The notes under the pieces are model-generated. The model saw only the letters and a list, made by a program, of their open reading frames with translations, did not search any database and was not told where the DNA came from. Below are positions 10,922 to 41,588 of a stretch of 43,998 nucleotides of DNA, one piece after another. Source of the stretch: a virus; IMG/VR virus record IMGVR_UViG_3300020576_007250, one strand, 5' to 3'. The stretch's first letter is position 1, and every line of letters starts with the position of its first letter. The position numbers and the translations under genes are program-made.

Positions 10922-10931
10922 GTAGATGTAC

Positions 10932-13032: not shown

Positions 13033-13198
13033 TGTTGAATACTGGCGCCGCAGAGCATTAGAAGCTGAAGCCAAACTGCAGAACGAAGAGAAAAAGAAGC
13101 TTGACGAAGCTACTGGTCCACGCTGTCGTGATTGTGGCGTGAGAAAAGCGTGTTATGGACTCCTATGTGGACCGTGTTGTTCTGATTACGACCTTTGA
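13025..13198 (+). CDS. small Cys-rich (zinc-ribbon-like) protein
   Basis: ATG 13025 overlaps upstream TGA; CRDCGVRKACYGLLCGPCC. Confidence 0.35.
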   Translation: MDDVEYWRRRALEAEAKLQNEEKKKLDEATGPRCRDCGVRKACYGLLCGPCCSDYDL

Positions 13199-13216
13199 CA
13201 ACCACCTATTTAACAG

Positions 13217-13498
13217 GTGAAAATTCGCCTAGGCCGGTTGAAACGTATTATCAAAGAGACCGTTAACGGTGTCTATCCAGGTGGACCAACCCGAAACATC
13301 TTGTCTCCTGCGACCAGCAGTCGAGAGCAGATTGGTAGTCTGGCAGACGGTGATCCTATCGATTGTGTCGACAATCCAGAAGGCATGCCAAATCATCTGT
13401 TCGAACCTGAGGTAGATCCGGATGATTGTTTTGGACCTGTGCCGCCTGATGCCGAAAAACCGTATCTGATGCAGGATCCTACGGTGAAAGACTACTAA
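13217..13498 (+). CDS. hypothetical small protein, paralog of 8656..8904
   Basis: MKIRLGRLKRIIKE N-terminal helix then Pro/Asp-rich tail. Confidence 0.4.
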   Translation: MKIRLGRLKRIIKETVNGVYPGGPTRNILSPATSSREQIGSLADGDPIDCVDNPEGMPNHLFEPEVDPDDCFGPVPPDAEKPYLMQDPTVKDY

Positions 13499-13553
13499 GA
13501 TTTAGTGAACTTTTTCTTGTCTTGATGCGTCAAAGACCTGTAATCAAAGGCTG

Positions 13554-14486: not shown

Positions 14487-14498
14487 TATAATTCGTGG

Positions 14499-15326: not shown

Positions 15327-15334
15327 TTAATACG

Positions 15335-15655
15335 TCACAGTCGTTCAACAACGGTATCTGAGGACGCGACCCAAACAGGTCGACCTTCCCACAACACCAG
15401 ATAAAATTCATTGGCCGGTGGTGAGAAACCATACGGCCCACGTCCTTTTTTCCTCATGGCTGCATTGAATGCATCAGGCTGGCTGTTGATGAAGAGGGCG
15501 TGAGTTTCATTTGGAATATCACAAATGACAATATCCAATTCTTCTCCCAACAACGCATTGAATGACCTCGGAACGTTCCTCGCCTTGATGCTTGAACCTT
15601 CACGACGTTCAGTCAATTTGACCATGGTTCCGGGTTCAAGTTTCGTCGTCATCAT
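15335..15655 (-). CDS. PGDxV-family small protein (PGT variant)
   Basis: LEPGTMVKLTERREG. Confidence 0.4.
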   Translation of the reverse strand: MMTTKLEPGTMVKLTERREGSSIKARNVPRSFNALLGEELDIVICDIPNETHALFINSQPDAFNAAMRKKGRGPYGFSPPANEFYLVLWEGRPVWVASSDTVVERL

Positions 15656-16019
15656 TCACCGTCACGTCTCGTTCTGTCGGCATGCTCGTGATGTTGGCAC
15701 CCTTCGATTTCGCCCATTCCTTGATGAAGTTATCGAATGTCAGGCGAATGATTCCCATGTCTAACAGGCTGAGATTTTTCAAGTGATTGCTAGAGATGGT
15801 GAATGATGCAGCCTCGACGACGGCGCCGACGGGATTCTCAATGTCATATGCGGGTCTCAACCGATACTTGGGTTCTTGGTGTATGTCGGTTGCCGCCGCA
15901 GGAATGACCTGCACGACCTGATAGATAAGGCGCCGTTGAAAAGGTGAGTACTCAGTCACCTTGCCTGTCCACATCACAATGTCACCAACGTTTAGCTTTT
16001 CAAGTGGCTTCGGTGTCAC
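15636..16019 (-). CDS. PGDxV-family small protein
   Basis: LNVGDIVMWTGKV ... LIYQVVQV. Confidence 0.4.
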   Translation of the reverse strand: MTPKPLEKLNVGDIVMWTGKVTEYSPFQRRLIYQVVQVIPAAATDIHQEPKYRLRPAYDIENPVGAVVEAASFTISSNHLKNLSLLDMGIIRLTFDNFIKEWAKSKGANITSMPTERDVTVNDDDET

Positions 16020-16082
16020 TGTGGGTCACCCATATTGAGAAGGTGGAATCTATCAATGGTCATGTGCAGGTTATATCGTGTG

Positions 16083-16517
16083 TCACTCGTGGGCATTATC
16101 AACCTGTTGAGCAGTCTCTGAGACCATCCCACCCTTGACGGCCAGATCGCGAATTATGTTACCTAATTCAGCATACTTCGTGGCGATATCGAGGAGTTCA
16201 ATCTTTTTCAAATTACGTAATTCATCATGATAAATGATCAATGTTGAATCTGCACCGCCTGGTGCCTTTCCTTTGCGTGTTGGAAAGAAAGTGAAAATCG
16301 GCCGAATTCGCAAATAACCACGAACTTCCATGGGCTTCATTTTCTTTCCCGACACTGGATGAAAAACTGTTTCATATATGCTAAGACGTTTTTCCTTAGC
16401 TATGGGCGATTCATAATTCATCGTAATCTGGTAGATGACACCACCCGTTGATTCCTTGTCAGAAGCGAAGGTGACGATATCACCAATTTTCAAACCAATT
16501 TTTTCAAGTGTATTCAT
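16083..16517 (-). CDS. PGDxV-family small protein
   Basis: LKIGDIVTFASDKESTGGVIYQITMNY. Confidence 0.4.
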   Translation of the reverse strand: MNTLEKIGLKIGDIVTFASDKESTGGVIYQITMNYESPIAKEKRLSIYETVFHPVSGKKMKPMEVRGYLRIRPIFTFFPTRKGKAPGGADSTLIIYHDELRNLKKIELLDIATKYAELGNIIRDLAVKGGMVSETAQQVDNAHE

Positions 16518-17245
16518 GACTCATCATCTTCCGGATCTGAGGGTTGATGGGATGGGCTCGTCGTCACTGTTTTCGATGTCGGTATCTGCCACTTTTGCGA
16601 AAGAGGATTTGCTACTGACAATTGTGTTTGAGCTTGTTGTTGTTGTATCACGCTGCGTATCAATTCTGCTTGTCTCGCTTTCATGCGTGATTTCTTTGTG
16701 TTTTCGTCTTCGACTACGGGTGGAGCGAATATATCCTTGACGATACGTCTGATACCAAATGACCAATTCTTGAATGATTTTACTTTCGACCAACACTTGC
16801 GAAATGTCGAAGACAAACATCTGTAGGATCTCCAAAACATTTTAACCGGCCAATGACCTGTGTTGCATCGCTCTGTTAATTTGACGTCTGGATACTGATA
16901 ATCCATATGAAAGATCAGACCTTGAGGAAGTTTCATGGGTTGAACAGTTACCATTTGTTGAGCGAGGGCTGGATAATTGACTCGCCTCATGATGGGAAAC
17001 ACGAAGTTGCTGAAGATGTCTTGACTGTAGGGTTCAACCGACCACAGAATGGTCAGCTGTTCATCGTTGACTGCGATGACAATTCCTTGACCTCCGTCCT
17101 TGATGTGCTTTACCTGATCACCAGGCTTGAGGATGTCGATACCACCTTCACGAATAAAAGGCCATGGGTCGGCATAATCCGTCGGAGGAAGCGTGGATGG
17201 ATATTTGTCGCTGTACGTGCGATCGTATGTTTTAAGGCTGCTCAT
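16514..17245 (-). CDS. PGDxV-family protein with acidic/Ser-rich C-terminal extension
   Basis: LKPGDQVKHIKDGGQGIVIAVNDEQLTILW; ATGA coupling both sides. Confidence 0.45.
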   Translation of the reverse strand: MSSLKTYDRTYSDKYPSTLPPTDYADPWPFIREGGIDILKPGDQVKHIKDGGQGIVIAVNDEQLTILWSVEPYSQDIFSNFVFPIMRRVNYPALAQQMVTVQPMKLPQGLIFHMDYQYPDVKLTERCNTGHWPVKMFWRSYRCLSSTFRKCWSKVKSFKNWSFGIRRIVKDIFAPPVVEDENTKKSRMKARQAELIRSVIQQQQAQTQLSVANPLSQKWQIPTSKTVTTSPSHQPSDPEDDES

Positions 17246-29744: not shown

Positions 29745-29959
29745 GGCGCGCCGTTTTCATCTTTCTTGTACGTACGTGGAAACGGCGATGTGTGAGGAAA
29801 GACCTCACGACGATTCAGCACAGCTTGCGTTGCATAGGACTTCACGTGCCCGGACAACATGTCCTCACGACGTGACATTGTCAGGTACGCTTGTTCCCAA
29901 AAGCGAATCTCTTCAGTCGTCGCATCAGGCAAGACAGTATCGAAATAGTTCAAATTCAT
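29741..29959 (-). CDS. hypothetical protein
   Basis: 72 aa; ATGA coupling. Confidence 0.35.
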   Translation of the reverse strand: MNLNYFDTVLPDATTEEIRFWEQAYLTMSRREDMLSGHVKSYATQAVLNRREVFPHTSPFPRTYKKDENGAP

Positions 29960-30618
29960 GCGTTCCTCGCTGCTCGTGCGGCTTCCTTCTCTGCCTTGAT
30001 AACTTCTTTGGGTCGATTTTTGACACCACGGGGACGCCCTCTGCCACGCTTCTCACCAGGCTTTGCGGCTGCGAGGGCCTCCTTCTTCAGTTGAGCCTTG
30101 ACAGCTCGCACTGCGAATGGGTCACCCTTTTCGGGAGCCAACTTGAAGATGTGAAGCCCGTCCTTATAGGAGACGTAGCGGACGGTCGGAATTCGAGCGT
30201 CTGAATCCTCGTCGAAGATGGTGACCAAACCGGTGTCATCGTCGATGGTGCGGACCCGACCGACGAGGGTCTGGAGCCATGGCAATCCCGGGAGCAAAGT
30301 CGTGGTGATGTCGACGACCACACGTTGACCGACATCGAAGAGCGGAAACTTTTCGAGCTTTTTCACGCCCATTTCATCAGGTTCTTGAGCGACCTCGACG
30401 ACGCCGTCCTTGAGGTGTCCGATGACAGGCCTGCGAGCCTGCCAGCGATCTCGACGCTCAGACTCCGACATGCCGAGCGACAAGGTCGCCTCAGCTGCCT
30501 CTTCGGCCGCGGCCGCTAGCTCCGGGTCGATGGGCTGCTCGACCACCGGCGGGAGACCTTCTTCGGGCCCACTCGAACCCACTTCAATTTCCGGCTCGTC
30601 AGCAATGGTGGTATCCAT
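29956..30618 (-). CDS. acidic protein with KOW/SH3-like segment and C-terminal AT-hook
   Basis: FDVGQRVVVDIT...LVGRVRTIDDDTGLVTI; GRGRPRG AT-hook; first gene of a 10-gene minus-strand coupled run. Confidence 0.45.
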   Translation of the reverse strand: MDTTIADEPEIEVGSSGPEEGLPPVVEQPIDPELAAAAEEAAEATLSLGMSESERRDRWQARRPVIGHLKDGVVEVAQEPDEMGVKKLEKFPLFDVGQRVVVDITTTLLPGLPWLQTLVGRVRTIDDDTGLVTIFDEDSDARIPTVRYVSYKDGLHIFKLAPEKGDPFAVRAVKAQLKKEALAAAKPGEKRGRGRPRGVKNRPKEVIKAEKEAARAARNA

Positions 30619-30738
30619 GGTCTTTAATTTACCACGCTCTCGAGGGCAATTGCACCGGTTTGGGAGAACGATAAAAAGATGATTTCGATGGTGAATTTGA
30701 GTGCAGATTCATTGCACACGCCGTGAAGACAATGTATC

Positions 30739-30978
30739 GTGAAGACGTTTCATCCCGGCGACATGGTCAAATCGATATGGTCAACACTTGCGGCACCGAT
30801 GTGGGATGATTGGTCAACGGCGGGAAAATCGAGCACTTCTAGCATCGTCGGTCGATTTGATGTTGGACAATTGGGCATTGTGTTATCTGTGTTACCTAAA
30901 CACACGACTGAAATTTTAATCATGACTTCACTTGGTGAGCTCGGTTGGATGTCACACCTTGACGTAGAAATCGCATAA
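30739..30978 (+). CDS. PGDxV/LGW-family array member 1 (GTG start)
   Basis: FHPGDMVKS ... LGIVLSV ... LGELGWM. Confidence 0.5.
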   Translation: MKTFHPGDMVKSIWSTLAAPMWDDWSTAGKSSTSSIVGRFDVGQLGIVLSVLPKHTTEILIMTSLGELGWMSHLDVEIA

Positions 30979-31025
30979 GAATTGAATCACAGATCCATTG
31001 TGCACACGAAAGAGACAATCACGTC

Positions 31026-31283
31026 GTGGACGGACTGCGACCTGGTGATCTCGTTATTCTTGGGCGTGGGCCTGCTGGTCTGCCTTTAATATTGACAGCG
31101 ACTCCGGGCTCAAGCGCGGGTGACAATCCTGAAACTGGGCAATTTCAATCGGGCCAACTTGGGCTGGTGTTAGCAATCACGCGTGACGGAGGCTCGACGT
31201 TGACGGACGAGGAGGCGCTCATCATTTGTCCCACGGGCCTGGGATGGAACACGATGCATAACATGAGGAAGGTGGCGACATGA
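31026..31283 (+). CDS. array member 2 (GTG start)
   Basis: LRPGDLVILG ... LGLVLAI ... TGLGWN. Confidence 0.5.
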   Translation: MDGLRPGDLVILGRGPAGLPLILTATPGSSAGDNPETGQFQSGQLGLVLAITRDGGSTLTDEEALIICPTGLGWNTMHNMRKVAT

Positions 31284-31301
31284 ATCACCGGTTATCGTGA
31301 G

Positions 31302-31559
31302 ATGAAGATTGATGCTTTCAAACCAGTACTTCCAGGAGACCTGGTGCACACCAATTCTTCACAGACCAGATCAGCGTCAATCACAAACGTGCCAATCGCC
31401 AGAATGTCTGGCCAACCTGAGTCATTGGGATTCTTGGACAGTGATGAAGTCGCCATCGTTATTAATGTTGATGATGAATCTGAAGAGACACTCGTGCTTA
31501 CCTCGACAGGAATCCTCGGATGGATTTACACAGTGGCACTACAGCGGGTGACAGGATGA
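31302..31559 (+). CDS. array member 3
   Basis: LPGDLVHT ... VAIVINV ... TGILGWIY ... RVTG. Confidence 0.55.
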   Translation: MKIDAFKPVLPGDLVHTNSSQTRSASITNVPIARMSGQPESLGFLDSDEVAIVINVDDESEETLVLTSTGILGWIYTVALQRVTG

Positions 31560-31813
31560 AAACTTCTGTCTTTAAACCTGGTGACTTAGTCAGACGTGTA
31601 AATGGCGTGTATCACAGCAAGTTACAAATCTTAAGGCAACCACGATCGAAAGGATTCAGCGTTCCTGTAGGAAGACTCATGATTGATGAAATAGCAATGA
31701 TCATTGGGCATGATGACGAAGCCAATGAATCACTGATCATCGCGACGACATACATCGGTTCTGCAGTGTTAGGCTGGATTCGCACCGATGTCATAGAACG
31801 GGTGACAGAATGA
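31556..31813 (+). CDS. array member 4
   Basis: ATGA coupling at 31556-31559; FKPGDLVRRV ... IAMIIGH ... SAVLGWI ... RVTE. Confidence 0.55.
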   Translation: MKTSVFKPGDLVRRVNGVYHSKLQILRQPRSKGFSVPVGRLMIDEIAMIIGHDDEANESLIIATTYIGSAVLGWIRTDVIERVTE

Positions 31814-32064
31814 AACATTGTGTTTTCAAACCGGGCGATCTGATCGCTGGTTCTGTCTTTCGTGTGGCACCACCGGAAATTTCCGCATGTTACGGGAGGA
31901 TAAATGAAAACAACAAACGCATCGGTCAATTGAGCAAAGACAGTGTTGCGCTCGTTCTATGCACCATTCCAGAACGCGAAGACAATGATGAAGAGGCCAT
32001 GATATTGACGTCTGATCACACGATCGGTTGGATAAGCGCTTTTGGAATAGAGCGGGTTACATGA
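31810..32064 (+). CDS. array member 5
   Basis: ATGA coupling; FKPGDLIAGS ... VALVLCT ... HTIGWI ... RVT. Confidence 0.55.
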   Translation: MKHCVFKPGDLIAGSVFRVAPPEISACYGRINENNKRIGQLSKDSVALVLCTIPEREDNDEEAMILTSDHTIGWISAFGIERVT

Positions 32065-32306
32065 AGAACGAATTTCTATGTGCTCCCGGTGACATGATCA
32101 CGGTTCCCATAGGACCGAGTTACATGTTGACAGCACGTCCCGGAGGAATCAATGGAACTACAAATCCATGCGTCGGCCATGCGGTGTTAAAAGAATTGGC
32201 GATCGTCATTTGTCGTGATGATAAAACCAGTGACCTATTGATCATGACAGGTTCGTGCAATTTGGGCTGGATTCGATCATGGGTGATTCAACGGGTAATA
32301 AGATGA
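32061..32306 (+). CDS. array member 6
   Basis: ATGA coupling; CAPGDMITV ... LAIVICR ... CNLGWI ... RVIR. Confidence 0.55.
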   Translation: MKNEFLCAPGDMITVPIGPSYMLTARPGGINGTTNPCVGHAVLKELAIVICRDDKTSDLLIMTGSCNLGWIRSWVIQRVIR

Positions 32307-32551
32307 AAACATTTCTACCGGGCGACATGATACGCTACGTCGGGCGATGGAAACATGACTATACGACAATCATGCCAGATCCATTGTCAGCTAACATTAC
32401 CACGACTAGAAACTATGCGAACGACCTGTTAACCAGTGAAATCTCAATCGTTATTTGTCGTCATGAATACACAGGAAACTTATTCATCATGAATTCCAGA
32501 TTAGTGTTGGGATGGATTGAGCCTACACGTATGATACGAGTGCATGAATGA
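32303..32551 (+). CDS. array member 7
   Basis: ATGA coupling; FLPGDMIRYV ... ISIVICR ... LVLGWI ... RVHE. Confidence 0.55.
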   Translation: MKTFLPGDMIRYVGRWKHDYTTIMPDPLSANITTTRNYANDLLTSEISIVICRHEYTGNLFIMNSRLVLGWIEPTRMIRVHE

Positions 32552-32835
32552 ACGCATTCATTCCTGGCGATTTCTTGTGTTTAGATCCGGATCATGCCAA
32601 TGATATCACAAAATCCATCGCTGTCTCTGGTATGCCGGGTGATGAATATCGCTTCAAGACATACATCGGAGGTCTTAAAGAAACTACGACCATGCTGGTT
32701 ATCTCTGGTAAAATTTTGGAACAACACTATTCACTAGTGTTGACGTCGAATGGAATGTTAGGTTGGGTACAGTCTGGTACTATGAAACGTGTGTCAGAGA
32801 GATCTCAGAATGAAAAATTCGTTCTTGCCCGGTGA
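32548..32835 (+). CDS. array member 8 (C-terminally extended)
   Basis: ATGA coupling; FIPGDFLCL ... MLVISG ... GMLGWV ... KRVSE then 11 extra residues because the normal ATGA junction is disrupted. Confidence 0.5.
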   Translation: MNAFIPGDFLCLDPDHANDITKSIAVSGMPGDEYRFKTYIGGLKETTTMLVISGKILEQHYSLVLTSNGMLGWVQSGTMKRVSERSQNEKFVLAR

Positions 32836-33027
32836 CCTCGTTCGTCTAAATCCATGTATCGGGCCAGCATCTGGAATGATTTAAATCAAATGATAGGTGA
32901 GTTCACGTCGCAGCACACTGCTATTATCATTTGCACGAGAAGTTGTGATGAAGACGTACTAGCATTGACGTCGTCAGGATTGTTAGGGTACATTCCTGTT
33001 AACAATTTAGAACGTGTGACAATATGA
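32810..33027 (+). pseudogene. array member 9, frameshifted
   Basis: MKNSFLPGDLVRLNP in one frame stops after 24 codons (TAA ~32880); family C-half (HTAIIICTR ... SGLLGYI ... ERVTI) continues in +1 frame to the ATGA junction at 33024-33027. Confidence 0.5.
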
Positions 33028-33260
33028 CACCGGGTTCTTTGGTGAAGATAGCAATTGAGGCATCGAACATCGGTCTCAGACAATATTCAACTCATTTCGA
33101 CCTGAACAACAAGTTGACTGGTTACATGACTGATAAAGACGTGGCTTTGATCGTTGGCATGCGTTGGTTTGGATACACGACGAAAGCTTTGATCGTGACG
33201 TCCAAAGGATTGTTAGGATGGACGCTCGCTGATAATTTGTGCAATGTTGGTGACGCATGA
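33024..33260 (+). CDS. array member 10
   Basis: MTPGSLVKI ... VALIVGM ... KGLLGWT. Confidence 0.5.
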   Translation: MTPGSLVKIAIEASNIGLRQYSTHFDLNNKLTGYMTDKDVALIVGMRWFGYTTKALIVTSKGLLGWTLADNLCNVGDA

Positions 33261-33502
33261 TCAAGCCCGGTGACATGGTACGAATCGATCCTGATCGAAA
33301 GATGAAGAGCACAGACTTCTTCACTGTCACTTCTCAAGCAGGAAGAATCTACGATCCGAACAATAAAATACTCGGCAAATTCATGTCAGATGACGTGGCA
33401 ATCATCATCTATGCAGACGATCATGATCAAAATGAAATGATGATACTGTCATCGACTGGGCTGTTGGGTTGGTGTTACACCACGTCGTTCGTCATCGTCT
33501 GA
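33257..33502 (+). CDS. array member 11
   Basis: ATGA coupling; IKPGDMVRI ... VAIIIYA ... TGLLGWCY. Confidence 0.55.
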   Translation: MIKPGDMVRIDPDRKMKSTDFFTVTSQAGRIYDPNNKILGKFMSDDVAIIIYADDHDQNEMMILSSTGLLGWCYTTSFVIV

Positions 33503-33542
33503 TCACCTAAAACGCAGCCAAAATTCTCACAGCATAGAAACC

Positions 33543-33857
33543 ATGAAAGAGACGCCACTCAATCTGACGACGGGCTCACTTCTACCGGGCGACCTGTTCT
33601 GCATCAAAAAGATCCCAGACCTGACATACACCATCGCCATCTTCGACCCATACGATCAGATCGGCAGAGTGATAGACAGGTTGACCGTCTCCCTGGTCGC
33701 CTTGGTGCTAGAAGCCGAGCGAGAAACACACACGTACATGATCATGAGCTCAGCAGGCACGTTAGGACGTGTGTACCTCAGTGGTGCTGCGATCAACGGA
33801 ATCTCTGAGACCGTCTCCCTGGTCGCCCGGAGCGCGGCCAAAATCTATTCTACGTAG
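33543..33857 (+). CDS. array member 12 (with internal 19-bp duplication)
   Basis: LLPGDLFCI ... VALVLEA ... AGTLGRVY; extended C-terminus carrying second copy of ACCGTCTCCCTGGTCGCC. Confidence 0.5.
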   Translation: MKETPLNLTTGSLLPGDLFCIKKIPDLTYTIAIFDPYDQIGRVIDRLTVSLVALVLEAERETHTYMIMSSAGTLGRVYLSGAAINGISETVSLVARSAAKIYST

Positions 33858-33905
33858 AAATGAAATGGAAGAAGCAAGTAGATGAGGGAGAGATAGAGTA
33901 GAAGA

Positions 33906-34439
33906 ATGTCAAACGACCCACGCGTCAAGCTAGCTCTAGAGCTGTATGGAAAGGGATTTGGTCCTACAGAAATTGTCAAGCAAATCAAGAGCCATGGCCT
34001 TGCTCCTGCGATCCCTAGAACAGTTAAGAACTGGCTGATAAAGAAGGGCGTTTACGTGTCCAATCCAGCCTATCGACGAATGGAAGTAAAGGAGACGCCT
34101 CTCAATGTCAATGTAATCAAGTGTCCTCATGACGTGCCGACCACCCGATGTAAGACATGCTGTCCAACGTCTGAGGCGAAAGCTCGATTCAATGGTTACG
34201 GCATCACTGAACTAGACTTCATCGCAATGTTAGACAAGCAACGACATCGATGTGCCATCTGCGAACGCGTGCTAGCAATCTTGCCCAAGGCTGAGGTGCA
34301 CATCGACCACTGTCACAAATCAGGCAAGGTCAGAGGTGTACTGTGCAAGAGGTGCAACACAGGCCTCTATCTGTTCGAAGAGAAGAAGATTCGAGAGCGA
34401 GCGACTGAGTACGTCTTGTCTGCGCGTCGCGCGTCGTAA
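33906..34439 (+). CDS. HNH-type endonuclease of the T4 endonuclease VII family (putative homing endonuclease)
   Basis: CAICERVL...HIDHCHKSGKVRGVLCKRCNTGL matches Endo VII His-Me finger core (HxDHxHxTGxVRGLLCxxCN); N-terminal 80 aa probably DNA-binding. Confidence 0.65.
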   Translation: MSNDPRVKLALELYGKGFGPTEIVKQIKSHGLAPAIPRTVKNWLIKKGVYVSNPAYRRMEVKETPLNVNVIKCPHDVPTTRCKTCCPTSEAKARFNGYGITELDFIAMLDKQRHRCAICERVLAILPKAEVHIDHCHKSGKVRGVLCKRCNTGLYLFEEKKIRERATEYVLSARRAS

Positions 34440-34735
34440 GGGGCGTGTCGAACGCTCAGAGTGGTGTTCTCCTCACAGTTACACACAGTCATAGCCTATT
34501 TGCTATAACGTAGTCTGCCACCTTCTACCACACTCGTAGTATGTGAGTCGCATCGGTGTATGTAGCGAGGAATGTTTGGAAGAAGAACATTGCATTACGT
34601 TCTGCATACATTCGATATGATCTCGAGATCTGCACAGATCTAACGGAAATCCACCGCTGATCTGCACAGCGACCTCACGCGTTACATGCAGATCCCCCGC
34701 AGATCCCGCCGGACACGCGTGGTCGACCGTCCCCT
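34440..34735. promoter_or_regulatory. GATC-dense non-coding region with direct repeats at GC-content boundary
   Basis: no convincing ORF; GATCTGCACAG at 34627 and 34659; 8 GATC sites within ~90 bp (34614-34702) including GCAGATCCC x2. Confidence 0.35.
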
Positions 34736-34990
34736 CTACCCTCTCCTCTCTACCCTCCGCAGCTCCTCTGTCCGCAGCCATCCCGCGGTGGGCATGCCGC
34801 GCGTCTTCCACCGGACCAGCGTACGGTCTGCATGCTGGACTGCCACCTCTCCTTCCTCGTATTTGCCTCCCGTGAGGAGGAAGGCGACCTTTTCACCGGG
34901 ATTGAAGCGGATCCCGGTCCAGTTGTCAGCCCGCAGGATGCCGTTGCAATCGATGTAGTTCTGCTGTCGAGGTGCGTTGTCTGTGCCCAT
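34736..34990 (-). CDS. PGDxV-family small protein (GC-rich copy)
   Basis: NPGEKVAFLLTGGKYEEGEVAVQ...LVRW. Confidence 0.45.
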   Translation of the reverse strand: MGTDNAPRQQNYIDCNGILRADNWTGIRFNPGEKVAFLLTGGKYEEGEVAVQHADRTLVRWKTRGMPTAGWLRTEELRRVERRG

Positions 34991-35189
34991 GGGTCAGTCT
35001 ACCACAGTCTCCACCGAGGGGACACAACTAAGTCACCCCTTGTACATGCACCCGGTGAGGTTATATGATGAGATGGGACTACTTTTTGCGGCGGTCAAGG
35101 GTTGCTCTGGCCCGCAAATGTTCTGAGCAGATCGCGCCATCGCGAGCGGGTGCGCCCGAATCGTGTATCGGGCGCGAGGAGAATTCAGC

Positions 35190-35384
35190 TCACGGGGTCT
35201 TCAGCACGCGTGATAGTTCACGGTAGACCTGCGCGAAAAGAGTGTCACCCGTCGGCTCCTGTCCCTCTACGGCGAGGTTCTTCCAGAAGGCGCGCATCTG
35301 ATCACGTAGTTCAATTGCCTCTGCACGCGTGAGGCCGACCTTGATTCCCTTGGGATGTTTCTCTCCCATCTCCTTGACGAACAT
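35190..35384 (-). CDS. hypothetical small protein
   Basis: start at ATG 35384 overlapping upstream stop. Confidence 0.35.
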   Translation of the reverse strand: MFVKEMGEKHPKGIKVGLTRAEAIELRDQMRAFWKNLAVEGQEPTGDTLFAQVYRELSRVLKTP

Positions 35385-35602
35385 CACGTGCCTCCATTCC
35401 GTGGGTCGATCCCCAGCGCAGTAAACATCTCTTCGAGTGAGTCCAACGTCTTGCATTCCTGCAAGCGATAGCTTGGGTTGTACGTGTCCAGCCGCGACAT
35501 GAGATGCTTGATGCCGTGAAACAACGTCATCGCTTCTTCCTTCTTCATCTCTACCTTGATGAGTTCGTCGCTCTCGTCTGTCGTCACGTTGATGTACATC
35601 AC
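35384..35602 (-). CDS. hypothetical small protein (MMY[IV]N paralog A)
   Basis: MMYINVTTDESDELIKVEMKKEEAMTLFHGI, paralogous to 35865..36101. Confidence 0.4.
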   Translation of the reverse strand: MMYINVTTDESDELIKVEMKKEEAMTLFHGIKHLMSRLDTYNPSYRLQECKTLDSLEEMFTALGIDPRNGGT

Positions 35603-35611
35603 CTTACCTCT

Positions 35612-35809
35612 TCAAGTTGCTGCGACTGCCAACAGGATGTTGTCCACGCGTGACCGTGCTGCGTGTTCGGTCTCGTGCCGCGAGAAGACCCAGGCACCGC
35701 TCATGACGCAGTGTCGACCATGGGCCACCAACGGACCGTCGTCTCGGTAGTAGACCAACGGATCATCGCTCTGCCAAAATGGCTTGGTGTCTGTCTTTTT
35801 GTTCGTCAT
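35612..35809 (-). CDS. hypothetical small protein
   Basis: preceded by conserved upstream element (35810-35832). Confidence 0.45.
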   Translation of the reverse strand: MTNKKTDTKPFWQSDDPLVYYRDDGPLVAHGRHCVMSGAWVFSRHETEHAARSRVDNILLAVAAT

Positions 35810-35832
35810 GATCTAGACTCTACCTCAGATCG
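35810..35832 (-). promoter_or_regulatory. conserved upstream element, copy 1
   Basis: minus-strand CGATCTGAGGTAGAGTCTAGATC then ATG. Confidence 0.5.
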
Positions 35833-35864
35833 CTGATGATTTGCACTTCGTGCAAACAATCCCT

Positions 35865-36101
35865 TCATGTCACCCGTTCCTGCCCAGGCTTGAGCACCCG
35901 TTCCAACGAGCTGGCAAAATCGTTCAGGACCTCGAGCGCTCTTGTATCGCTGGGATCGTTGCATATGATTCCGTTGGTGAGCACGTCTACCAGCGATGAC
36001 ACCCTGTTGATTGCGTGGAAGATGCGCTTGGCATCGTCAGCCTTGAGTTCGACCTTGTCGAAGTCGCCTGCCTTGCTGGGTTTGAAGTTCACGTACATCA
36101 T
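35865..36101 (-). CDS. hypothetical small protein (MMY[IV]N paralog B)
   Basis: MMYVNFKPSKAGDFDKVELKADDAKRIFHAI. Confidence 0.4.
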   Translation of the reverse strand: MMYVNFKPSKAGDFDKVELKADDAKRIFHAINRVSSLVDVLTNGIICNDPSDTRALEVLNDFASSLERVLKPGQERVT

Positions 36102-36379
36102 TTCTTTCCTCCGATGATGAGGCGCAGATGCGGCCTCGCTGGTTCGCTGGCGTTTTCTAACATGTCGAGGAAGGGTTGAACGCCTCCTCTTTGGTCGAAC
36201 TTCTCTTGAACTTTCTTTGCGCGGTCACTGATCCCCGCCAGGTGATTGAGGTGATTCTTGTGTTCATCAAAGGTTTTGCAGGAGCAGCCTCCCTCCTTCC
36301 ATGATGAGTACACGCGTTTCCATTCATCGTCCATGGTGTATCTCCAACGGCCCACGCCCCGGACACCTCTGTGAGGCAC
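36098..36379 (-). CDS. hypothetical protein (Cys/His-containing)
   Basis: 93 aa; ATGA coupling; possible start MDDEWK at 36334. Confidence 0.35.
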   Translation of the reverse strand: MPHRGVRGVGRWRYTMDDEWKRVYSSWKEGGCSCKTFDEHKNHLNHLAGISDRAKKVQEKFDQRGGVQPFLDMLENASEPARPHLRLIIGGKK

Positions 36380-36438
36380 CTCGGGGCTGTGACTGGGAAC
36401 GCGTGACTATCTTATCTTGCCGGGCTCCGTCACGCGTG

Positions 36439-37272
36439 TTATGCCGCCTCTTTCGCGGCCTCGCGGGCCGCGGCTGCGACGGTTTCATTCTCATAGTGAC
36501 CCGCCTCTTCGAGGAGGCCACCCTTGCCGCGCTGGAGGATGTAGGTCTTGCCCGTGCAACCGAACCGGTTCTTGGACACCTCGAAGAGGAGCTGACCGAA
36601 GGTCTCTGACTTCTCTTTCGTGTCCACGTAGAGTTCGGCATGGACGTCGATGGCGTGTTTGATGGTGTTGTGCCCGGCGAACTCACCGCCCTTGGTGCAC
36701 TGGCCGATGAAGATGCAGACACCGAAGTTGCGCTGCATCCAGTCCACCAACATCTCCGTGCAGTAAGTGGGCGTCTTACCCGTGGTGCCGCGGCTACGAC
36801 CGTCCTTGTCAACGTAGCGGCCGTCGTCCAGCGTCTGCAACGAGTCCTGCAGGAGGAAAATCTGCTTGCCCGGCATCGACTTCTTCACGCTGTCGAGATA
36901 ACCGAGCAGCTTGGGAAGCATGGTCTCTTCGCCGACATCGAAGTTTTCCGTGAGGCCGAGGCGTTCACAGGACATCTTCACCTGGAAGAGCGACTCCTCG
37001 CCGGTGTTATAGATGGCGTAGTGACCCATCCGGGCGAGCGCGTCTGCCGTCTGCCGGATCAAGGTGGACTTGCCTGCACCAGGACCACCGGTGAGCATCA
37101 TGGTCGTGGTGGGAGTGAACCCACCCTCGCCTTCGCCACCGAATCCAAGGGCGTCATCCATCCACTGGATACCGCTGGAGTGCTTGACTCGCAGTTCTGC
37201 CGGGACTTCGACAGAATTGATCTTCGTCCCCATCTTGAAACCGCGAGAAACATTCAATTTCATAGTCGACAT
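36439..37272 (-). CDS. RecA-superfamily ATPase, RadA/Sms-core-like (no Zn finger or Lon domain)
   Basis: SGIQWMDDALGFGG-x8-TTTMMLTGGPGAGKSTL (RadA/DnaB/KaiC-type P-loop context), Walker B IFLLQDSLQTL; 277 aa. Confidence 0.65.
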   Translation of the reverse strand: MSTMKLNVSRGFKMGTKINSVEVPAELRVKHSSGIQWMDDALGFGGEGEGGFTPTTTMMLTGGPGAGKSTLIRQTADALARMGHYAIYNTGEESLFQVKMSCERLGLTENFDVGEETMLPKLLGYLDSVKKSMPGKQIFLLQDSLQTLDDGRYVDKDGRSRGTTGKTPTYCTEMLVDWMQRNFGVCIFIGQCTKGGEFAGHNTIKHAIDVHAELYVDTKEKSETFGQLLFEVSKNRFGCTGKTYILQRGKGGLLEEAGHYENETVAAAAREAAKEAA

Positions 37273-37313
37273 CAGTGTGTCTCCTTACTTGTACAGTGTA
37301 TCATGGATTGCGG

Positions 37314-37508
37314 TTAAGATTCACTGATTACGTTGTCGATTGAGACAATTACGGTGTAACATTCGTCATCGACATTAGACAAAACGAAGTGGTCTTGCTC
37401 TTCGTCATCGCGCTCTTTGGTCGTCATGAGTTCGTCAATGATTGCTTTCGCTTGGATGACGAGCTGGCGAGCCTTTTCCAATCGAGCCTTTTCGGTATTG
37501 GTTAGCAT
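37314..37508 (-). CDS. hypothetical small acidic protein
   Basis: preceded by conserved upstream element. Confidence 0.45.
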   Translation of the reverse strand: MLTNTEKARLEKARQLVIQAKAIIDELMTTKERDDEEQDHFVLSNVDDECYTVIVSIDNVISES

Positions 37509-37530
37509 GTATCAGATCTTACCTCAGATC
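37509..37530 (-). promoter_or_regulatory. conserved upstream element, copy 2
   Basis: minus-strand GATCTGAGGTAAGATCTGATAC then ATG. Confidence 0.45.
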
Positions 37531-37738
37531 ATCTGTGACTTTCACCGTTGTTCCTGTTGAAATACACATTCACTAGCGAGATTGTGCTCGAGCTTGGTGG
37601 CTCTCCGCCAGAACCTTACAGCCCAGAGCCCCACAAGAAGCTATCGCGAGTGATAGAGACTAGTGTAACACGACGACGTCGCTCGTTGCACTGCGGGCGA
37701 GAAAAGAAACAAATTCACAGATTGGTGAAAGTCAATGG

Positions 37739-37760
37739 CGATTTGAGGTAGATTAGAACC
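37739..37760 (+). promoter_or_regulatory. conserved upstream element, copy 3 (variant)
   Basis: CGATTTGAGGTAGATTAGAACC then ATG 37761. Confidence 0.4.
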
Positions 37761-38003
37761 ATGGAAACCATCAAGAACCGGAAGATTAAGAGTGTTAAGC
37801 GCCAGACACCCAAGAGGCGAAACGTCTCAAACATTGTCTTCGATGAAGCGAAACGTTCGCTGAAGATCCGAGAAGATCAAGGGTACAAGATCACCAAAGA
37901 AATGATTGACGAAATGGTCCGTCACTATAGTGGAGGCGAGCTTTCGACTGCAAAATATAAGAGGGTCCGGCGCAAGTTGGAGATCGTCTTCGACAATGTG
38001 TAA
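37761..38003 (+). CDS. small basic protein
   Basis: 80 aa, Lys/Arg-rich (KNRKIKSVKRQTPKRRN). Confidence 0.5.
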   Translation: METIKNRKIKSVKRQTPKRRNVSNIVFDEAKRSLKIREDQGYKITKEMIDEMVRHYSGGELSTAKYKRVRRKLEIVFDNV

Positions 38004-38011
38004 CTCAACAA

Positions 38012-38033
38012 CGATCTGAGGTATAACAAGATC
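38012..38033 (+). promoter_or_regulatory. conserved upstream element, copy 4
   Basis: CGATCTGAGGTATAACAAGATC then ATG 38034. Confidence 0.5.
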
Positions 38034-38438
38034 ATGCAAACCAACGAAATCATCGGATACCGAGTGCGTTCAATTGAAGACGGCATGTACATCCACGTCC
38101 GTGAAGGCGATGGATTCAACTACTTGTCAGCAAAAGAACCGAGGCCCATCTCTCGACCAGATGCACTGCGCCGGCTAGCCGGATACTACGAGCAGAACGA
38201 TGGTGCAGAAGATGAATATGAAGTCGTCCCTGTGTATCGGGAGTACACCCCCACCCCTCTCGAGACCACGTCCAAGGAACTCGCAGGCCTGCTCACCAAC
38301 CTGACCGACCGTCATGGTCTGAAGCTTCACCTGACGCAGGAACAGATCGAACGCAAGATCGCCTACGAGCTTCAGGAGTTCGGCGCCGGCCTCTCCGAAG
38401 ACGTCTTCAAGCAACTTCAGGCGATTCGTAACACCTGA
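38034..38438 (+). CDS. hypothetical protein
   Basis: 134 aa. Confidence 0.5.
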   Translation: MQTNEIIGYRVRSIEDGMYIHVREGDGFNYLSAKEPRPISRPDALRRLAGYYEQNDGAEDEYEVVPVYREYTPTPLETTSKELAGLLTNLTDRHGLKLHLTQEQIERKIAYELQEFGAGLSEDVFKQLQAIRNT

Positions 38439-38528
38439 GCCTGAAAAAGCGGCCCACTCGTTGACCCAGGATTGACCCGGGCAACGTAGACAGGGAAACC
38501 TATGGCCTCATCGGGACAATCTCGGTGA

Positions 38529-38580
38529 GGCTTTTTGCCGTTCTCGAACCGGCGTGCTGTGAATTAAACGGCAAAAAGCC
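38529..38580. terminator. 14-bp perfect inverted repeat
   Basis: GGCTTTTTGCCGTT-N24-AACGGCAAAAAGCC between convergent genes 38034..38438(+) and 38615..38803(-). Confidence 0.4.
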
Positions 38581-38614
38581 GGGAACCCTGTCGGATCCCC
38601 GGCGTCAGCCTGTT

Positions 38615-38803
38615 TCAGGCGCCGAACTTCGAGACCAGCGCTCCGAGGATTCCCCAGAACACGACTGCAATGAAGAGGAGCAGCCACAAGGGAGCGAGGA
38701 TGTACAGCCAGGAGACGTCGACCCCCGCCAGAGAGAGTAACCCCTTGCCGATGATGAGCAAGGCCTGTAATGTACCGAGTGAACCTATGAACTTGAATCG
38801 CAT
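38615..38803 (-). CDS. small membrane protein (2 TM)
   Basis: LQALLIIGKGLLSLAGV and LYILAPLWLLLFIAVVFWGILGALV. Confidence 0.45.
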   Translation of the reverse strand: MRFKFIGSLGTLQALLIIGKGLLSLAGVDVSWLYILAPLWLLLFIAVVFWGILGALVSKFGA

Positions 38804-38822
38804 GGTGTGGGGTCTTTCTTAA

Positions 38823-38901
38823 AAGAACACGGGTCCTTTGGGACCCGTTGAACACTTCCTTGATGTCAGTAATCAGCGGGTCCCAAAGGACCCGTGTTCT
38901 T
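38823..38901. terminator. 25-bp perfect inverted repeat with internal sub-hairpins
   Basis: AAGAACACGGGTCCTTTGGGACCCG-N29-CGGGTCCCAAAGGACCCGTGTTCTT; each arm itself contains a GGGTCC/GGACCC hairpin; lies 3' of gene 38916..39182(-). Confidence 0.5.
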
Positions 38902-38915
38902 CTTTCTTGCCGGGT

Positions 38916-39182
38916 TCAGGCGGTTGCCGAAGCGCGAGGGGTGAAGGTGACCTTCTTCTCACCCCAGTTCTCGGTGACTGCCGGCTTCTTGCCGACCTTC
39001 TGGGTGACCTTGATGCGCTTCTTGCCATGGCTGGCATCGAGCACCTCGATCTTGACTTCCTTCTCGGGGTCGATGCTGGAGGCTTCCTTGCCCGGGCCGA
39101 AGTAGACGCCGGAGAAGCAGACGATGAGGGTTCCCTTGCGAGAGTAAACGCGGCGGGGAGAGTTGCTGGAGCGCATAGCCAT
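38916..39182 (-). CDS. small basic protein
   Basis: 88 aa, Lys-rich, possible KOW-like G..I.V..G.......G pattern; weak. Confidence 0.4.
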   Translation of the reverse strand: MAMRSSNSPRRVYSRKGTLIVCFSGVYFGPGKEASSIDPEKEVKIEVLDASHGKKRIKVTQKVGKKPAVTENWGEKKVTFTPRASATA

Positions 39183-39397
39183 GATGTTTTATCCTTGATG
39201 TTGAGGCCGGGTTGTTCCTGCCTGATAAGTCTAGTTTACCACGAAGAGATCACCGTTGCACTGCGAGAAGAACGTTCAGTGTTTTTCTGAAAAATTCTGC
39301 ACGTCATCATCGTCGCTCCCCTATCAGAGATGTTGCGAGGTTAATGAATCGCATGCTGCCCTCGCGGGCGTCCCACGTCGTCTTTAAATGGCGATAT

Positions 39398-39430
39398 GAA
39401 AGGTCCCTTGCGCATAAGGGCCTTTTCATA
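39398..39430 (+). terminator. hairpin + T-run (rho-independent-like)
   Basis: GAAAGGTCCCTT-GCGCAT-AAGGGCCTTTTC followed by ATAT. Confidence 0.3.
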
Positions 39431-39539
39431 TATGAATCACTGTGCTTCTACATGACATTAGGTGGGCTTTTTGTGAAAGCCACTGGCGAACCATGTTACT
39501 GTCACCGCCATGGACAACAGGGGTCATCAGGAGGGAATC

Positions 39540-39785
39540 TCAGGCGGCCTTGACAACTTTCAGTCGACTTTTGGGATTCTGGATGACATCCTTACACAGG
39601 GCGTCGATGAATTCGGAGTCGGTCCATCCAGCCTCTCTAACGAGTTCGTCTAGCATCTTTTGGATTCTGGATGCATTGTCGGACGTTTCTTCGGTGGACA
39701 GGGCTGCTGTCCGTTTTCGGGCCTCTGCAAGGATACGCTCTTGACTCCATCGAGCCTTGAGTAGGGGTTTGAGAATGGTCTTCAT
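39540..39785 (-). CDS. hypothetical small protein
   Basis: start chosen at ATG 39785 (MKTILKPLLKARW); divergent from 40063 gene across operator-containing region. Confidence 0.35.
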   Translation of the reverse strand: MKTILKPLLKARWSQERILAEARKRTAALSTEETSDNASRIQKMLDELVREAGWTDSEFIDALCKDVIQNPKSRLKVVKAA

Positions 39786-39888
39786 AGTAATGGACCCTAT
39801 CAACTATGAATGTCAATTTGCACTTCTAAAGGCAAATGACGGTGGCCAGCCATACAAACGGGCACTCGTGGGCAAGAAGTGACCGAAA

Positions 39889-39937
39889 CTGTGACATTAA
39901 TGCACCACTAAAAAGTCGACTGTGACAAAATGTCACA
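39889..39937. promoter_or_regulatory. candidate operator: repeated TGTGACA boxes incl. perfect palindrome
   Basis: CTGTGACATT (39889-39898), CTGTGACA (39920-39927), and TGTGACA-AAA-TGTCACA perfect 7-3-7 palindrome (39921-39937) in 259-bp AT-richer divergent intergenic region. Confidence 0.4.
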
Positions 39938-40062
39938 CTTATTTGTACCAAGTTTTGTGAATTAGTAGTATTGAACCAAGTCAACAGGCGAAACGTGATA
40001 AAACAAACACACGTTGGCCGAACAATAAAAAGCAGATAAAATAGGAAGTAGGTAAGAGGAAC

Positions 40063-40710
40063 ATGGGCGAGAAGAACACGGCAGCGGCGGGAACGGATCA
40101 AAATGTGTCGGCAATCGACAAGGCAATTGCGGCGGCACAGGCCCGCAAGGCAACGAAGGTTGCTTCTGGAAATGCAACGGAGCGTTCGGCTCCTGGCGAG
40201 AAGGTCGCCAAGGCTCCGAAGATGAGCGACGAGGAGAAGGCTGCGAAGCTAGCTGCTCGAGAGGCTGAGCGCGCCGAGAAGAAGGCAGCTCGGGACATCA
40301 TCCGGGCCAACAAGATTGCTGAGCGCGATGCAAATCGCCAGCCGGCACACATGCGAAAGGTCCAGAAGGCAGCAGAGAAGCTGACCTCTCTCGGTCAGGC
40401 GGCTGAGCTCCTCTTTAATGAGGCGACCGCAAACCTCACGCAGGCTGAGCTCTCGGCGCTGGCCACCCACATCCAGCACTTCAACCGTGTCAAGGCCACG
40501 GAACGCGCACTGACCCAGAAGTTCGAGGTCGGTCAGACTGTCAACATCGTTGCCGGCGACCCCCGCTTCATTGGCAAGTCGGGCACCCTCGCGAAGGTCC
40601 AACGCATCCGCTGTTACGTGACGGTCGAGGGCTTCAACAAGCCGATTTATTTGTTTACGTCAGACGTTACGTCTGCTTCTGTAGACACTGCAGTCGCCGC
40701 AGCTTCCTGA
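40063..40710 (+). CDS. Lys/Ala-rich protein with C-terminal KOW-like domain
   Basis: N-terminal AAKK/AEKK-rich low-complexity; C-terminal FEVGQTVNIVAGDPRFIGKSGTLAKVQRIRCYVTVEG fits KOW motif (GxxVxIxxGxxxGxxGxLxxV). Confidence 0.5.
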   Translation: MGEKNTAAAGTDQNVSAIDKAIAAAQARKATKVASGNATERSAPGEKVAKAPKMSDEEKAAKLAAREAERAEKKAARDIIRANKIAERDANRQPAHMRKVQKAAEKLTSLGQAAELLFNEATANLTQAELSALATHIQHFNRVKATERALTQKFEVGQTVNIVAGDPRFIGKSGTLAKVQRIRCYVTVEGFNKPIYLFTSDVTSASVDTAVAAAS

Positions 40711-41264
40711 ATAGTACGAAAAGTTGCCCAGCGAATTTGATTCGCTTTGATAGCACCTCGTTGTCGAGCGGCTCGTAACTCTGGGTTATTGACGTATGTT
40801 TCACGTCCACTAGCGCCGATTTTAGCACGGTGTTCAACAGATAAGTGCTTGCCTTTTCCGCCAATTGACATTGCAATTCGGTGTTCAGGTGTGCACTTTC
40901 TTCCTTGAAGAGCTTGTCGAATCTTTTCACGGTGTTCTAATGATTTGGGAGTAGAGGGTCCTCCTCTTCCTCCCATGTCGCCGTTTGCGCCCCACCAATT
41001 ATCTCCACCTCTTGTGTATGTTCGATAGAGTGCAATAAATTCAACTTCTTTGTCGTATGCAATTGTTTCATCATCAGTTTCGAAGACAATTGTGCGTTGC
41101 ATTCCTCCGTACTTTTCACGAATGCTACGATAGATTGCATTTCTAGAGCGACGATCGTTGACTCGCCACTCTGTTCCTTTTCCGACGTAAAAAGGTCGAG
41201 GAGAATCTTCGCCAGTGAAATCTACATAGATAGCGAATTTATGTGTGAGAGTGATACGTTCCAT
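40647..41264 (-). CDS. GIY-YIG homing endonuclease with NUMOD3 repeats
   Basis: FAIYVDFTGEDSPRPFYVGKGT (GIY...YIG-type split motif) and C-terminal repeats EHREKIRQALQGRK / EHRIAMSIGGKGK / EHRAKIGASGR (NUMOD3-like H..KIS.A..GK); gene body ~40% GC vs ~55% flanks; 3' end overlaps 40063..40710 by 64 nt. Confidence 0.75.
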   Translation of the reverse strand: MERITLTHKFAIYVDFTGEDSPRPFYVGKGTEWRVNDRRSRNAIYRSIREKYGGMQRTIVFETDDETIAYDKEVEFIALYRTYTRGGDNWWGANGDMGGRGGPSTPKSLEHREKIRQALQGRKCTPEHRIAMSIGGKGKHLSVEHRAKIGASGRETYVNNPELRAARQRGAIKANQIRWATFRTIQEAAATAVSTEADVTSDVNK

Positions 41265-41317
41265 GTATAAAATTGTACTTCACTCACGTAGTGATGACTG
41301 TTAGTGTATTTCGACAG

Positions 41318-41339
41318 TGATCTGTGGTAGACTAGATTC
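41318..41339 (+). promoter_or_regulatory. conserved upstream element, copy 5 (variant)
   Basis: TGATCTGTGGTAGACTAGATTC then ATG 41340. Confidence 0.4.
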
Positions 41340-41588
41340 ATGAACAACAATGACTACAAGCGAGCAGCCCGTAACGCAAAGAAGCTCACGGTCATCGCTG
41401 AAGGTTTGAACTCTGCTTCCTGCTATGAGGTCGCCTCGAAGGCCCACTTCAAGGCGGACGACCTTGGCACCAAGTTTGAGACCTCGACGTCAATCGATCA
41501 CTTTCATATCGGTGATCAACTGGCGTACAAGGCTCGTGAACTCCGGCAGGGGATGAAGAAACCGAAGAAGATTTGGCTCATGGTGTAA
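41340..41588 (+). CDS. hypothetical small protein
   Basis: 82 aa. Confidence 0.5.
   Translation: MNNNDYKRAARNAKKLTVIAEGLNSASCYEVASKAHFKADDLGTKFETSTSIDHFHIGDQLAYKARELRQGMKKPKKIWLMV

Follow-up and report, generated by a model that had tools for sequence, protein, structure and literature searches.

In homogeneous polyimmunity loci, distant paralogues stand in the same orientation with tiny spacers between them, vary from strain to strain and are occasionally joined in multi-domain fusions (Zhang et al. 2012, PMC3482391), and in Bacillus phage G a zinc ribbon of unknown function has reached about 35 copies in a lineage-specific jumbo-phage expansion (Iyer et al. 2021, PMC7824862). An array that resembles both occupies positions 30739–33857 of the plus strand in the IMG/VR virus record IMGVR_UViG_3300020576_007250, the whole 43,998-nt stretch of which was analysed and is called the window below. 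It consists of 12 paralogous open reading frames (ORFs) of 57–104 aa in tandem, 11 intact and one frameshifted, designated m01 to m12 in their order (Table 1). We conclude that the window is one piece of the genome of an uncultured huge phage and that its array is a modest case of an expansion running through a whole clade of such phages. The reading that best accounts for the array, its putatively coupled expression and its content taken together is a battery of small binding proteins, which we advance tentatively, as somewhat short of probable.

Family, fold and array remodelling

A MAFFT alignment of the 12 members shows a P-G-D close to the N-terminus that is nearly invariant, an A-I-V-I in the middle, the segment L-x-L-T-S-x-G-x-L-G-W and a C-terminal R-V, with P-G nearly invariant and the LG of LGW invariant or nearly so. 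The shared N- and C-terminal motifs on which the earlier note had founded the family are recovered in this way, but with exceptions in m09 (which lacks PGD and has LGY), m10 (PGS) and m12 (LGR). Pairwise identity is 15–42%. A hidden Markov model (HMM) of the 12 picks out each of them, at E = 2e-27 to 3e-18, from the 559 ORFs that the window has in six frames, and leave-one-out models, searched against the same ORFs, retrieve every omitted member at E = 1.9e-7 to 6.2e-19, so that the proposed family withstood the test of alignment with no omitted member scoring worse than 1.9e-7. The sole further ORF of the window that scores with the family HMM is a dispersed 13th member outside the array, at 24305–24631 (-). 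Seven of the 11 array junctions are ATGA overlaps, all of them at the positions given in the earlier note, but they are not the seven consecutive junctions described there, forming instead a run of five (31556–32548) and a further two (33024 and 33257) with the damaged m08/m09 junction between. Repeated duplication of a unit, also part of that proposal, is supported by the slightly greater likeness of adjacent copies (30.7% vs 26.0% identity), the best-matching pairs being m03/m04 (42%) and m06/m07 (39%).

Evidence for coding constraint comes from orthologues on three independent metagenome contigs, L001, L002 and L003, which are 84–93%, 77–100% and, over window positions 30992–41559, 99.99% identical to the window, respectively. 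Ratios of nonsynonymous to synonymous substitution (dN/dS) were calculated gene-wide by the Nei–Gojobori method for five orthologous pairs against two related contigs (L001 and L002, two orthologues per gene). They are 0.067 for m02 vs L002 (dS 0.445; differences at codon positions 1/2/3 of 6/1/21), 0.07 for m07 vs L001 (dS 0.71; 6/3/25), 0.20 for m06 vs L001 (dS 0.80; 11/11/27), 0.26 for the m03 orthologue (dS 0.92) and 0.39 for that of m09 (dS 0.13). Only the motif-coding segments recur along the array, at 60–80% nucleotide identity with a spacing of ~240–254 nt, and TRF found no nucleotide tandem repeat. The candidate explanation of the array as a nucleotide tandem-repeat artefact is ruled out by this null result and by the concentration of substitutions at third codon positions; with dN/dS at 0.07–0.39 and such a third-position excess, a non-coding repeat is ruled out as well. 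The array members are protein-coding genes under purifying selection. Diversifying selection, which the earlier note had read from the divergence between motifs, finds no support in these gene-wide values, and diversity between genomes stems instead from ancient divergence of the paralogues together with gain and loss of whole genes.

An AlphaFold2 model of m03, based on a 13-sequence family alignment, is a seven-stranded small barrel of SH3 topology (pLDDT 90.0, pTM 0.79), so that the small SH3-like barrel anticipated earlier was right at the level of fold, and each member is a single bacterial-type SH3 (SH3b-like) β-barrel. Structural comparison with Foldseek against PDB and BFVD gave weak agreement (E about 6e-3 to 2e-2), the matches including YorP and phage ‘SH3 domain’ mini-proteins. 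No known domain had been obvious at the outset, and sequence-profile searches of Pfam, PHROGs, PADLOC and PDB chains with 12 or 48 members likewise found nothing significant. All matches to Pfam SH3_3, SH3_5, SH3_8/GW and LytB_SH3 fall far below the cut-offs: the sole SH3 match of the 12 window members is to LytB_SH3 (E = 0.22, one member), the sole SH3-type matches of 48 members are to MSSS (0.04) and SH3_CYT4 (0.11), one member each, and no KOW or Tudor profile is matched in these scans. Profile comparison places the family outside all SH3b sequence families so far described. Across 48 members, column entropies single out P11, G12, D13, L14, V15, G43, A51–I54, L64–S68, G70, L72, G73, W74 and V83 as conserved, likely the fold-determining residues of hydrophobic core and glycine turns, while residues 16–42 (the equivalent of the RT loop, with indels) and 55–63 (the distal loop) are close to maximally variable. 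Profile matches begin within the first ~30 residues in most hits, leaving no N-terminal extension for a signal peptide, which points to a probably cytoplasmic location.

Arrays of this family grew by tandem duplication and were remodelled by recombination at the motif-coding segments, and it is because of such recombination that entire genes set close relatives apart. Between m02 and m03, L002 carries one member more, Y (P0015), at a place where the window shows only an 18-nt spacer, possibly the relic of a deleted copy. In L001, m07 is followed at once by another member, X, in the place that m08 occupies in the window, and m08 is absent from L001. The first 37 nt of X are nevertheless present in the window (32805–32841, 97% identical to the start of X in L001), followed by a segment 93% identical to the m09 counterpart of L001 (32828–33051), X being fused to m09 at the PGDLV-coding segment. 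A 1-nt deletion after AATCC puts the PGD N-terminus of m09 out of frame (the full-length orthologue, P0005, has 72 aa), and m08 reads 11 codons past the usual RVxE end (here RVSE) across the junction. The same lesion is found in the 99.99%-identical assembly L003. In m12 an exact 19-nt direct repeat, GACCGTCTCCCTGGTCGCC, stands at 33683–33701 and 33809–33827 and encodes TVSLVA twice, which suggests that its C-terminal extension is a fragment of a recently duplicated, then truncated 13th copy. The X/m09 scar, the gene differences and the m12 repeat read as signatures of unequal homologous recombination between conserved motif-coding segments. Over window positions 30611–31559, moreover, m01 and the 128-nt region upstream of it are 100% identical in L002, whereas m02 has a dS of 0.45 and m03 of 0.92; such uneven dS within 1.2 kb (0, 0.45, 0.92) points to recent mosaic recombination among related phages inside the array. 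An array can persist when single members are lost or damaged. Two mobile nuclease genes of the window, the endonuclease VII gene after the array and a homing-endonuclease-like gene, could promote recombination in this region.

Searched exhaustively with a profile of the family, 1.84 billion cluster representatives yielded 201 proteins at E <= 1e-3, 21 of them at E <= 1e-10. A word-indexed protein search with alignments returned hardly anything beyond the proteins of the window itself, and a genome_contigs scan with P0029 had no result. Nearly all relatives are single-domain proteins of 70–117 aa; two-domain fusions of the family occur in P0022, P0025 and P0053 (156, 177 and 205 aa), and among the 150 relatives listed there are only single or double family domains, with no fusion to a catalytic domain. 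Every retrieved contig with one member has several, in tandem on the same strand and commonly with 4-nt overlaps. Short contigs carry 4 (L001), 4 (L002), 3 (L004) and 6 members (L005), the 15-kb L007 has 5 domains, and L012, from an NCBI metagenome-assembled genome, has 12. Larger arrays are found in L009 (26 members in 20 kb), L016 (29 members, a 216-kb IMG/VR UViG), L013 (31 members in 20 kb, array at 5714–17081) and L014 (GCA_034680565.1, JAXOUH010042983.1), where ~49 members fill 13.6 kb (1–13480) essentially unbroken; nearly all members in the last two overlap by 4 nt. A T4_Y16D-matching gene stands at the end of the L014 array. Family members also lie on contigs up to 361 and 370 kb. The RadA/KaiC-like ATPase of the window (36439–37272, -) is 65% identical to the array-flanked one in L009, a contig of the same lineage as a 359-kb JGI contig, and 71% identical to one on a 340-kb UViG, the range over UViGs of 216 and 340 kb and the 359-kb JGI contig being 65–71%. 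In 50,697 GenBank phage records neither the region nor any of the three family members tested has a match, be it in nucleotides or in protein. A hallmark of one clade of uncultured huge phages (contigs of 216–370 kb), the family is confined to that clade. The literature searched, which was incomplete, yielded no description of it or of phage SH3 mini-gene arrays, so that its undescribed status is unproven.

Expression and possible function

Pairing of the 20 nt upstream of the array starts with the anti-Shine–Dalgarno sequence averages ~-2.3 kcal/mol, equal to random 20-mers of the window; many other window genes reach -6 to -9.5 kcal/mol, and other genes of the window carry GAGGT. The array combines stop/start overlaps (ATGA or GTGA in relatives) with downstream genes devoid of their own ribosome-binding site, and a same-strand block with 4-nt overlaps is consistent with the polycistronic, coupled translation proposed in the earlier note. 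A single message starting in the divergent intergenic region before m01 would carry the whole array and be translated largely by termination–reinitiation at the ATGA junctions, because the array genes lack a Shine–Dalgarno signal of their own; coupled reinitiation would be the most economical reading of this arrangement. Scans for consensus sigma-70 promoters and for terminators returned 9 each, vs 6.4±2.4 and 5.6±2.1 in shuffles (~1–2 SD), and no convincing sigma-70 match lies in 30619–30738. A motif shared upstream of m01 and m02 (CATTG.GCACACG / GARGACAAT) was not enriched over shuffles and was dropped, and Rfam and tRNA scans of the window found nothing.

Other genes of the window display a signal of their own. 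Directly before the ATG of at least nine genes between 35.8 and 43.9 kb stands a conserved ~40-nt cassette, GTGAAAGTCA-N5-7-GATCTGAGGTAGAnTnAGATC, which written out is GTG(A/T)AA(A/C)(G/T)TCA-N5-7-GATCTGAGGTAGAnTnAGATC-ATG. Its second half is a palindrome, GATCT...AGATC, enclosing a GAGGT Shine–Dalgarno signal, and a search with the cassette 20-mer, allowing up to 3 mismatches, gave 5 matches where 0 were expected. It is probably a phage-specific promoter or 5'-untranslated-region (5'-UTR) element marking one temporal gene class. The GATCTGAGGTAGA 5'-UTR cassette of these other genes is absent from 30619–30738 and from the array, which places the array in a different expression class.

SH3 barrels classically serve as interaction scaffolds, and in this family the variable part is the RT-loop face of the barrel. 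Each protein may accordingly be pictured as a stand-alone binding module that would recognise a different partner through its variable loops, the members being co-expressed as binders or inhibitors, all at once and early in infection, against, for example, defence or toxin effectors. That the array forms such a battery of parallel, individually dispensable SH3 binders, with specificities set by their loops and aimed at variable proteins of hosts or competitors, is a possibility we favour without calling it probable. Conservation of orthologues implies that each copy does something specific. Doubtful, and by analogy only, is the wider picture of a germline repertoire of SH3 binders, tens of them or perhaps a hundred, continually reshuffled by unequal recombination at PGDLV and LGW segments, that would amount to a polyvalent counter-defence or anti-toxin arsenal built on a fold new in this role.

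Several observations weigh against a battery of binders or against its proposed expression. No partner, toxin or defence gene is linked to the arrays: no toxin domain was found in 14 relative loci, nor any toxin or defence gene consistently adjacent to the arrays, and neither PADLOC nor the Imm families of Pfam were matched by any of 48 members. Selection measured gene-wide is purifying, with no signal of positive selection at the gene level. Promoter and terminator placements in the window do not define the putative operon, and m01, at the head of the array, starts with GTG and lacks a Shine–Dalgarno signal, which leaves the start of array translation unexplained. Finally, the structures that come closest are SH3b domains that bind cell walls, and the dispersed member lies 23 nt downstream, on the same strand, of a gene for an 836-aa protein with a GH5 cellulase domain (24655–27165, -; 9.5e-53), the only hint tying the family to carbohydrate biology.

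These last two points favour a different function, in which the members would be free SH3b modules binding cell wall or polysaccharide and would aid phage glycoside hydrolases or lysins at entry or lysis, different copies recognising different wall or capsule chemotypes. We consider this improbable, given that the members have no signal peptide or N-terminal extension, that among the 150 listed relatives none is fused to a catalytic domain, that SH3_3, SH3_5 and GW profiles of Pfam are unmatched, and that the tens of copies per genome reside in DNA-metabolism or small-ORF regions and not in lysis or tail modules. A second alternative takes the proteins for KOW-, Tudor- or Sm-like barrels that bind nucleic acid or ribosome and transcription factors and thereby modulate transcription, translation or RNA metabolism of host or phage. 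It looks rather improbable for proteins that are mostly acidic to neutral (pI 4.3–8.5 over the 12 members, 7/12 at or below 5.7) and match no KOW or Tudor profile of Pfam; regulators of this kind are normally single-copy, and 26–49 paralogues would be hard to explain.

The 4-nt overlaps found throughout the arrays, together with the natural fusions of two adjacent domains, could also be expected if the members were parts of a single hetero-oligomer, such as a ring, filament, shell or virion decoration, whose stoichiometry is fixed by coupling. Yet the number and identity of members differ between genomes whose flanking genes are 84–96% identical, one copy is frameshifted in two assemblies, and array size ranges from 4–12 to about 49, which fits dispensable parallel units. 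Variation of copy number and content between close genomes and tolerance of a frameshifted copy argue against obligate stoichiometric subunits, and we regard such an assembly as quite improbable. An AlphaFold2 model of the two-domain fusion P0053 gave no information on an interface, as the alignment was concentrated on the second domain and so left the first with a pLDDT < 50. The rapid gain and loss of genes, the scars of recombination, the frameshifted copy and a possible relic would suit largely functionless or selfish tandem duplicates, genomic filler kept by recombination-prone repeats, but strong purifying selection (dN/dS down to 0.07 at dS 0.45–0.9), fold-determining residues conserved over about 200 representative clusters, and open frames and overlaps kept across dozens of copies make this very improbable.

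Other genes of the window

The remaining genes (Table 1) include GroEL, endonuclease VII, a NinI-type phosphatase, a homing endonuclease, weak gp23-like matches, IF-1 and an AAA ATPase, a set that fits a huge phage distantly related to T4-like phages; the TANGO2, GroEL, AAA ATPase and NinI genes are typical of huge phages. The gp23-like ORFs may be capsid-related paralogues or fragments, and the vault-like protein is unusual in a phage genome. Endonuclease VII was considered as a functional partner of the array and ruled out, being absent beside the arrays of distant relatives (L007, L009–L014). Other small ‘PGDxV’ ORFs of the window were tried as members and gave hhalign probabilities of 2–72%, only 24305–24631 being accepted. 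Many ORFs of 69–106 aa that open, like small SH3-like barrels, with PG[DQTE]x[VIL] followed by a hydrophobic strand lie at 6154–8198, 9558–9773 (-), 34736–34990 (-), 10691–10921 (-) and 15335–15655 (-), the last two having the best hhalign scores; they may be very distant relatives or belong to other barrel families.

Table 1. Positions of the array members and of other features in the window
Feature	Start	End	Strand	Remarks
Upstream intergenic region, divergent	30619	30738	+	between minus-strand ORF 29956–30618 and m01; likely array promoter region
m01	30739	30978	+	79 aa; GTG start; leave-one-out E = 9.9e-12; all 237 nt identical in L002
m02	31026	31283	+	85 aa; GTG start; leave-one-out E = 1.9e-7
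m02/m03 spacer, 18–21 nt	31280	31300	+	81% identical to NESLII-coding segment of m04
m03	31302	31559	+	85 aa; member used for structure model
m04	31556	31813	+	85 aa; ATGA overlap with m03; leave-one-out E = 5.3e-14
m05	31810	32064	+	84 aa; ATGA overlap with m04; leave-one-out E = 4.1e-15
m06	32061	32306	+	81 aa; ATGA overlap with m05; leave-one-out E = 6.1e-15
m07	32303	32551	+	82 aa; ATGA overlap with m06; leave-one-out E = 1.2e-12
m08	32548	32835	+	95 aa; ATGA overlap with m07; leave-one-out E = 3.9e-11
X/m09 hybrid relic	32810	32884	+	24 codons out of frame, MKNSFLPGDLVRLNP...; 5' end of gene X + 5' end of m09
m09	32854	33027	+	57 aa; N-terminally truncated by frameshift; matches HMM positions 28–79 only
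m10	33024	33260	+	78 aa; ATGA overlap with m09; leave-one-out E = 3.7e-9
m11	33257	33502	+	81 aa; ATGA overlap with m10; leave-one-out E = 5.3e-17
m12	33543	33857	+	104 aa; divergent last copy, LGR for LGW, C-terminal extension; leave-one-out E = 1.6e-7
Dispersed 13th member	24305	24631	-	108 aa; HMM E = 4.9e-7, 1.7e-19 with iterated profile; same protein as P0017
Endonuclease VII-type gene, non-member	33906	34439	+	directly after array; PF02945 at 8.5e-17, PHROG endonuclease VII at 2e-25
Homing-endonuclease-like gene	40647	41264	-	PHROG 314, 1.5e-14
Conserved cassette, upstream of starts	35809(-), 37508(-), 37761(+), 38034(+), 41340(+), 41619(+), 42232(+), 42731(+), 43925(+)			weaker at 34990(-)
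TANGO2-family protein	845	1618	+	1.4e-31
AAA ATPase	2264	3691	+	
GroEL-type chaperonin	4243	5985	+	43–46% identical to those of Flavobacterium and Bacteroides phages
IF-1 homologue	8807	9097	+	Pfam eIF-1a/IF-1, E = 8e-22
NinI-like phosphatase	9877	10689	-	
gp23-like ORF	16514	17245	-	short weak T4 gp23 match, profile positions 4–48, E = 2.5e-7
gp23-like ORF	17541	17927	-	short weak T4 gp23 match, profile positions 314–354, E = 2.7e-3
Vault-like ORF	20028	22721	-	897 aa; major vault protein domains (MVP_shoulder 2.3e-30, Vault_3, Vault repeat, Band_7/SPFH); no PHROG match
ORF divergent from array	29956	30618	-	220 aa; acidic N-terminus, Tudor/SH3-like stretch FDVGQRVVVD..., C-terminal AT-hook-like GRGRPRG (by eye); no Pfam or PHROG match

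Comparison with described systems

In fold the family comes near the SH3b domains of the phiSM101 endolysin Psm (4KRT, a tandem SH3_3) and of NlpC/P60 hydrolases (3PVQ, 3H41 and 3M1U, N-terminal), to which its identity is only 6–15%; unlike these, its domain stands alone, with no catalytic partner or secretion signal, in tens of tandem genes. The GW modules of Listeria InlB and Ami (1M9S) are repeats inside one secreted surface protein, whereas here each unit has a separate gene, and the family has no Pfam GW/SH3_8 match. YorP of SPbeta (PDB 2HEQ) and the BFVD ORFs annotated ‘SH3 domain protein’ or ‘Mind bomb SH3 repeat’ are, like the members, phage single-domain SH3-type proteins of 60–100 aa; they are, however, single-copy, and their structural similarity is weak (Foldseek E about 6e-3 to 8e-2). 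With the zinc ribbons of phage G the family has in common that a small binding domain has multiplied massively in a single lineage of jumbo phages, but the family has a different fold, its copies are strictly tandem and overlapping, and it is unmatched in the 50,697 GenBank phage records.

To our knowledge, the about 49 consecutive genes in 13.6 kb are among the largest tandem gene expansions in a phage, and in the clade of 216–370-kb environmental phages some genome regions consist in large part of this family. Were its members diversified binders, they would constitute a naturally assembled library of minimal SH3 scaffolds of ~80 aa whose specificities are encoded in the loops, a means of testing gene amplification vs point-mutation arms races in the conflict of huge phages with their hosts, and a clean system for reinitiation across dozens of ATGA junctions; were they to bind cell wall or polysaccharide, they would represent a new class of free phage lectin-like modules.

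Closest in organisation are the polyimmunity loci. Like them, the array is a tandem of distant paralogues on one strand at minimal spacing (12 genes, 7 ATGA overlaps, 15–42% identity), and its gene content differs among close genomes (Y, X, m08), with fusions in P0022, P0025 and P0053. Unlike them, it resides in a phage genome, has an SH3 fold, extends in relatives to about 49 genes (far longer), and is linked to no cognate toxin and to no known Imm family. For want of that toxin linkage the array can be said to be organised like a polyimmunity locus, by analogy only. As a battery of binders the array would follow the logic of these loci and also that of the multigene families of large DNA viruses, and the doubtful wider repertoire would be a phage counterpart of both.

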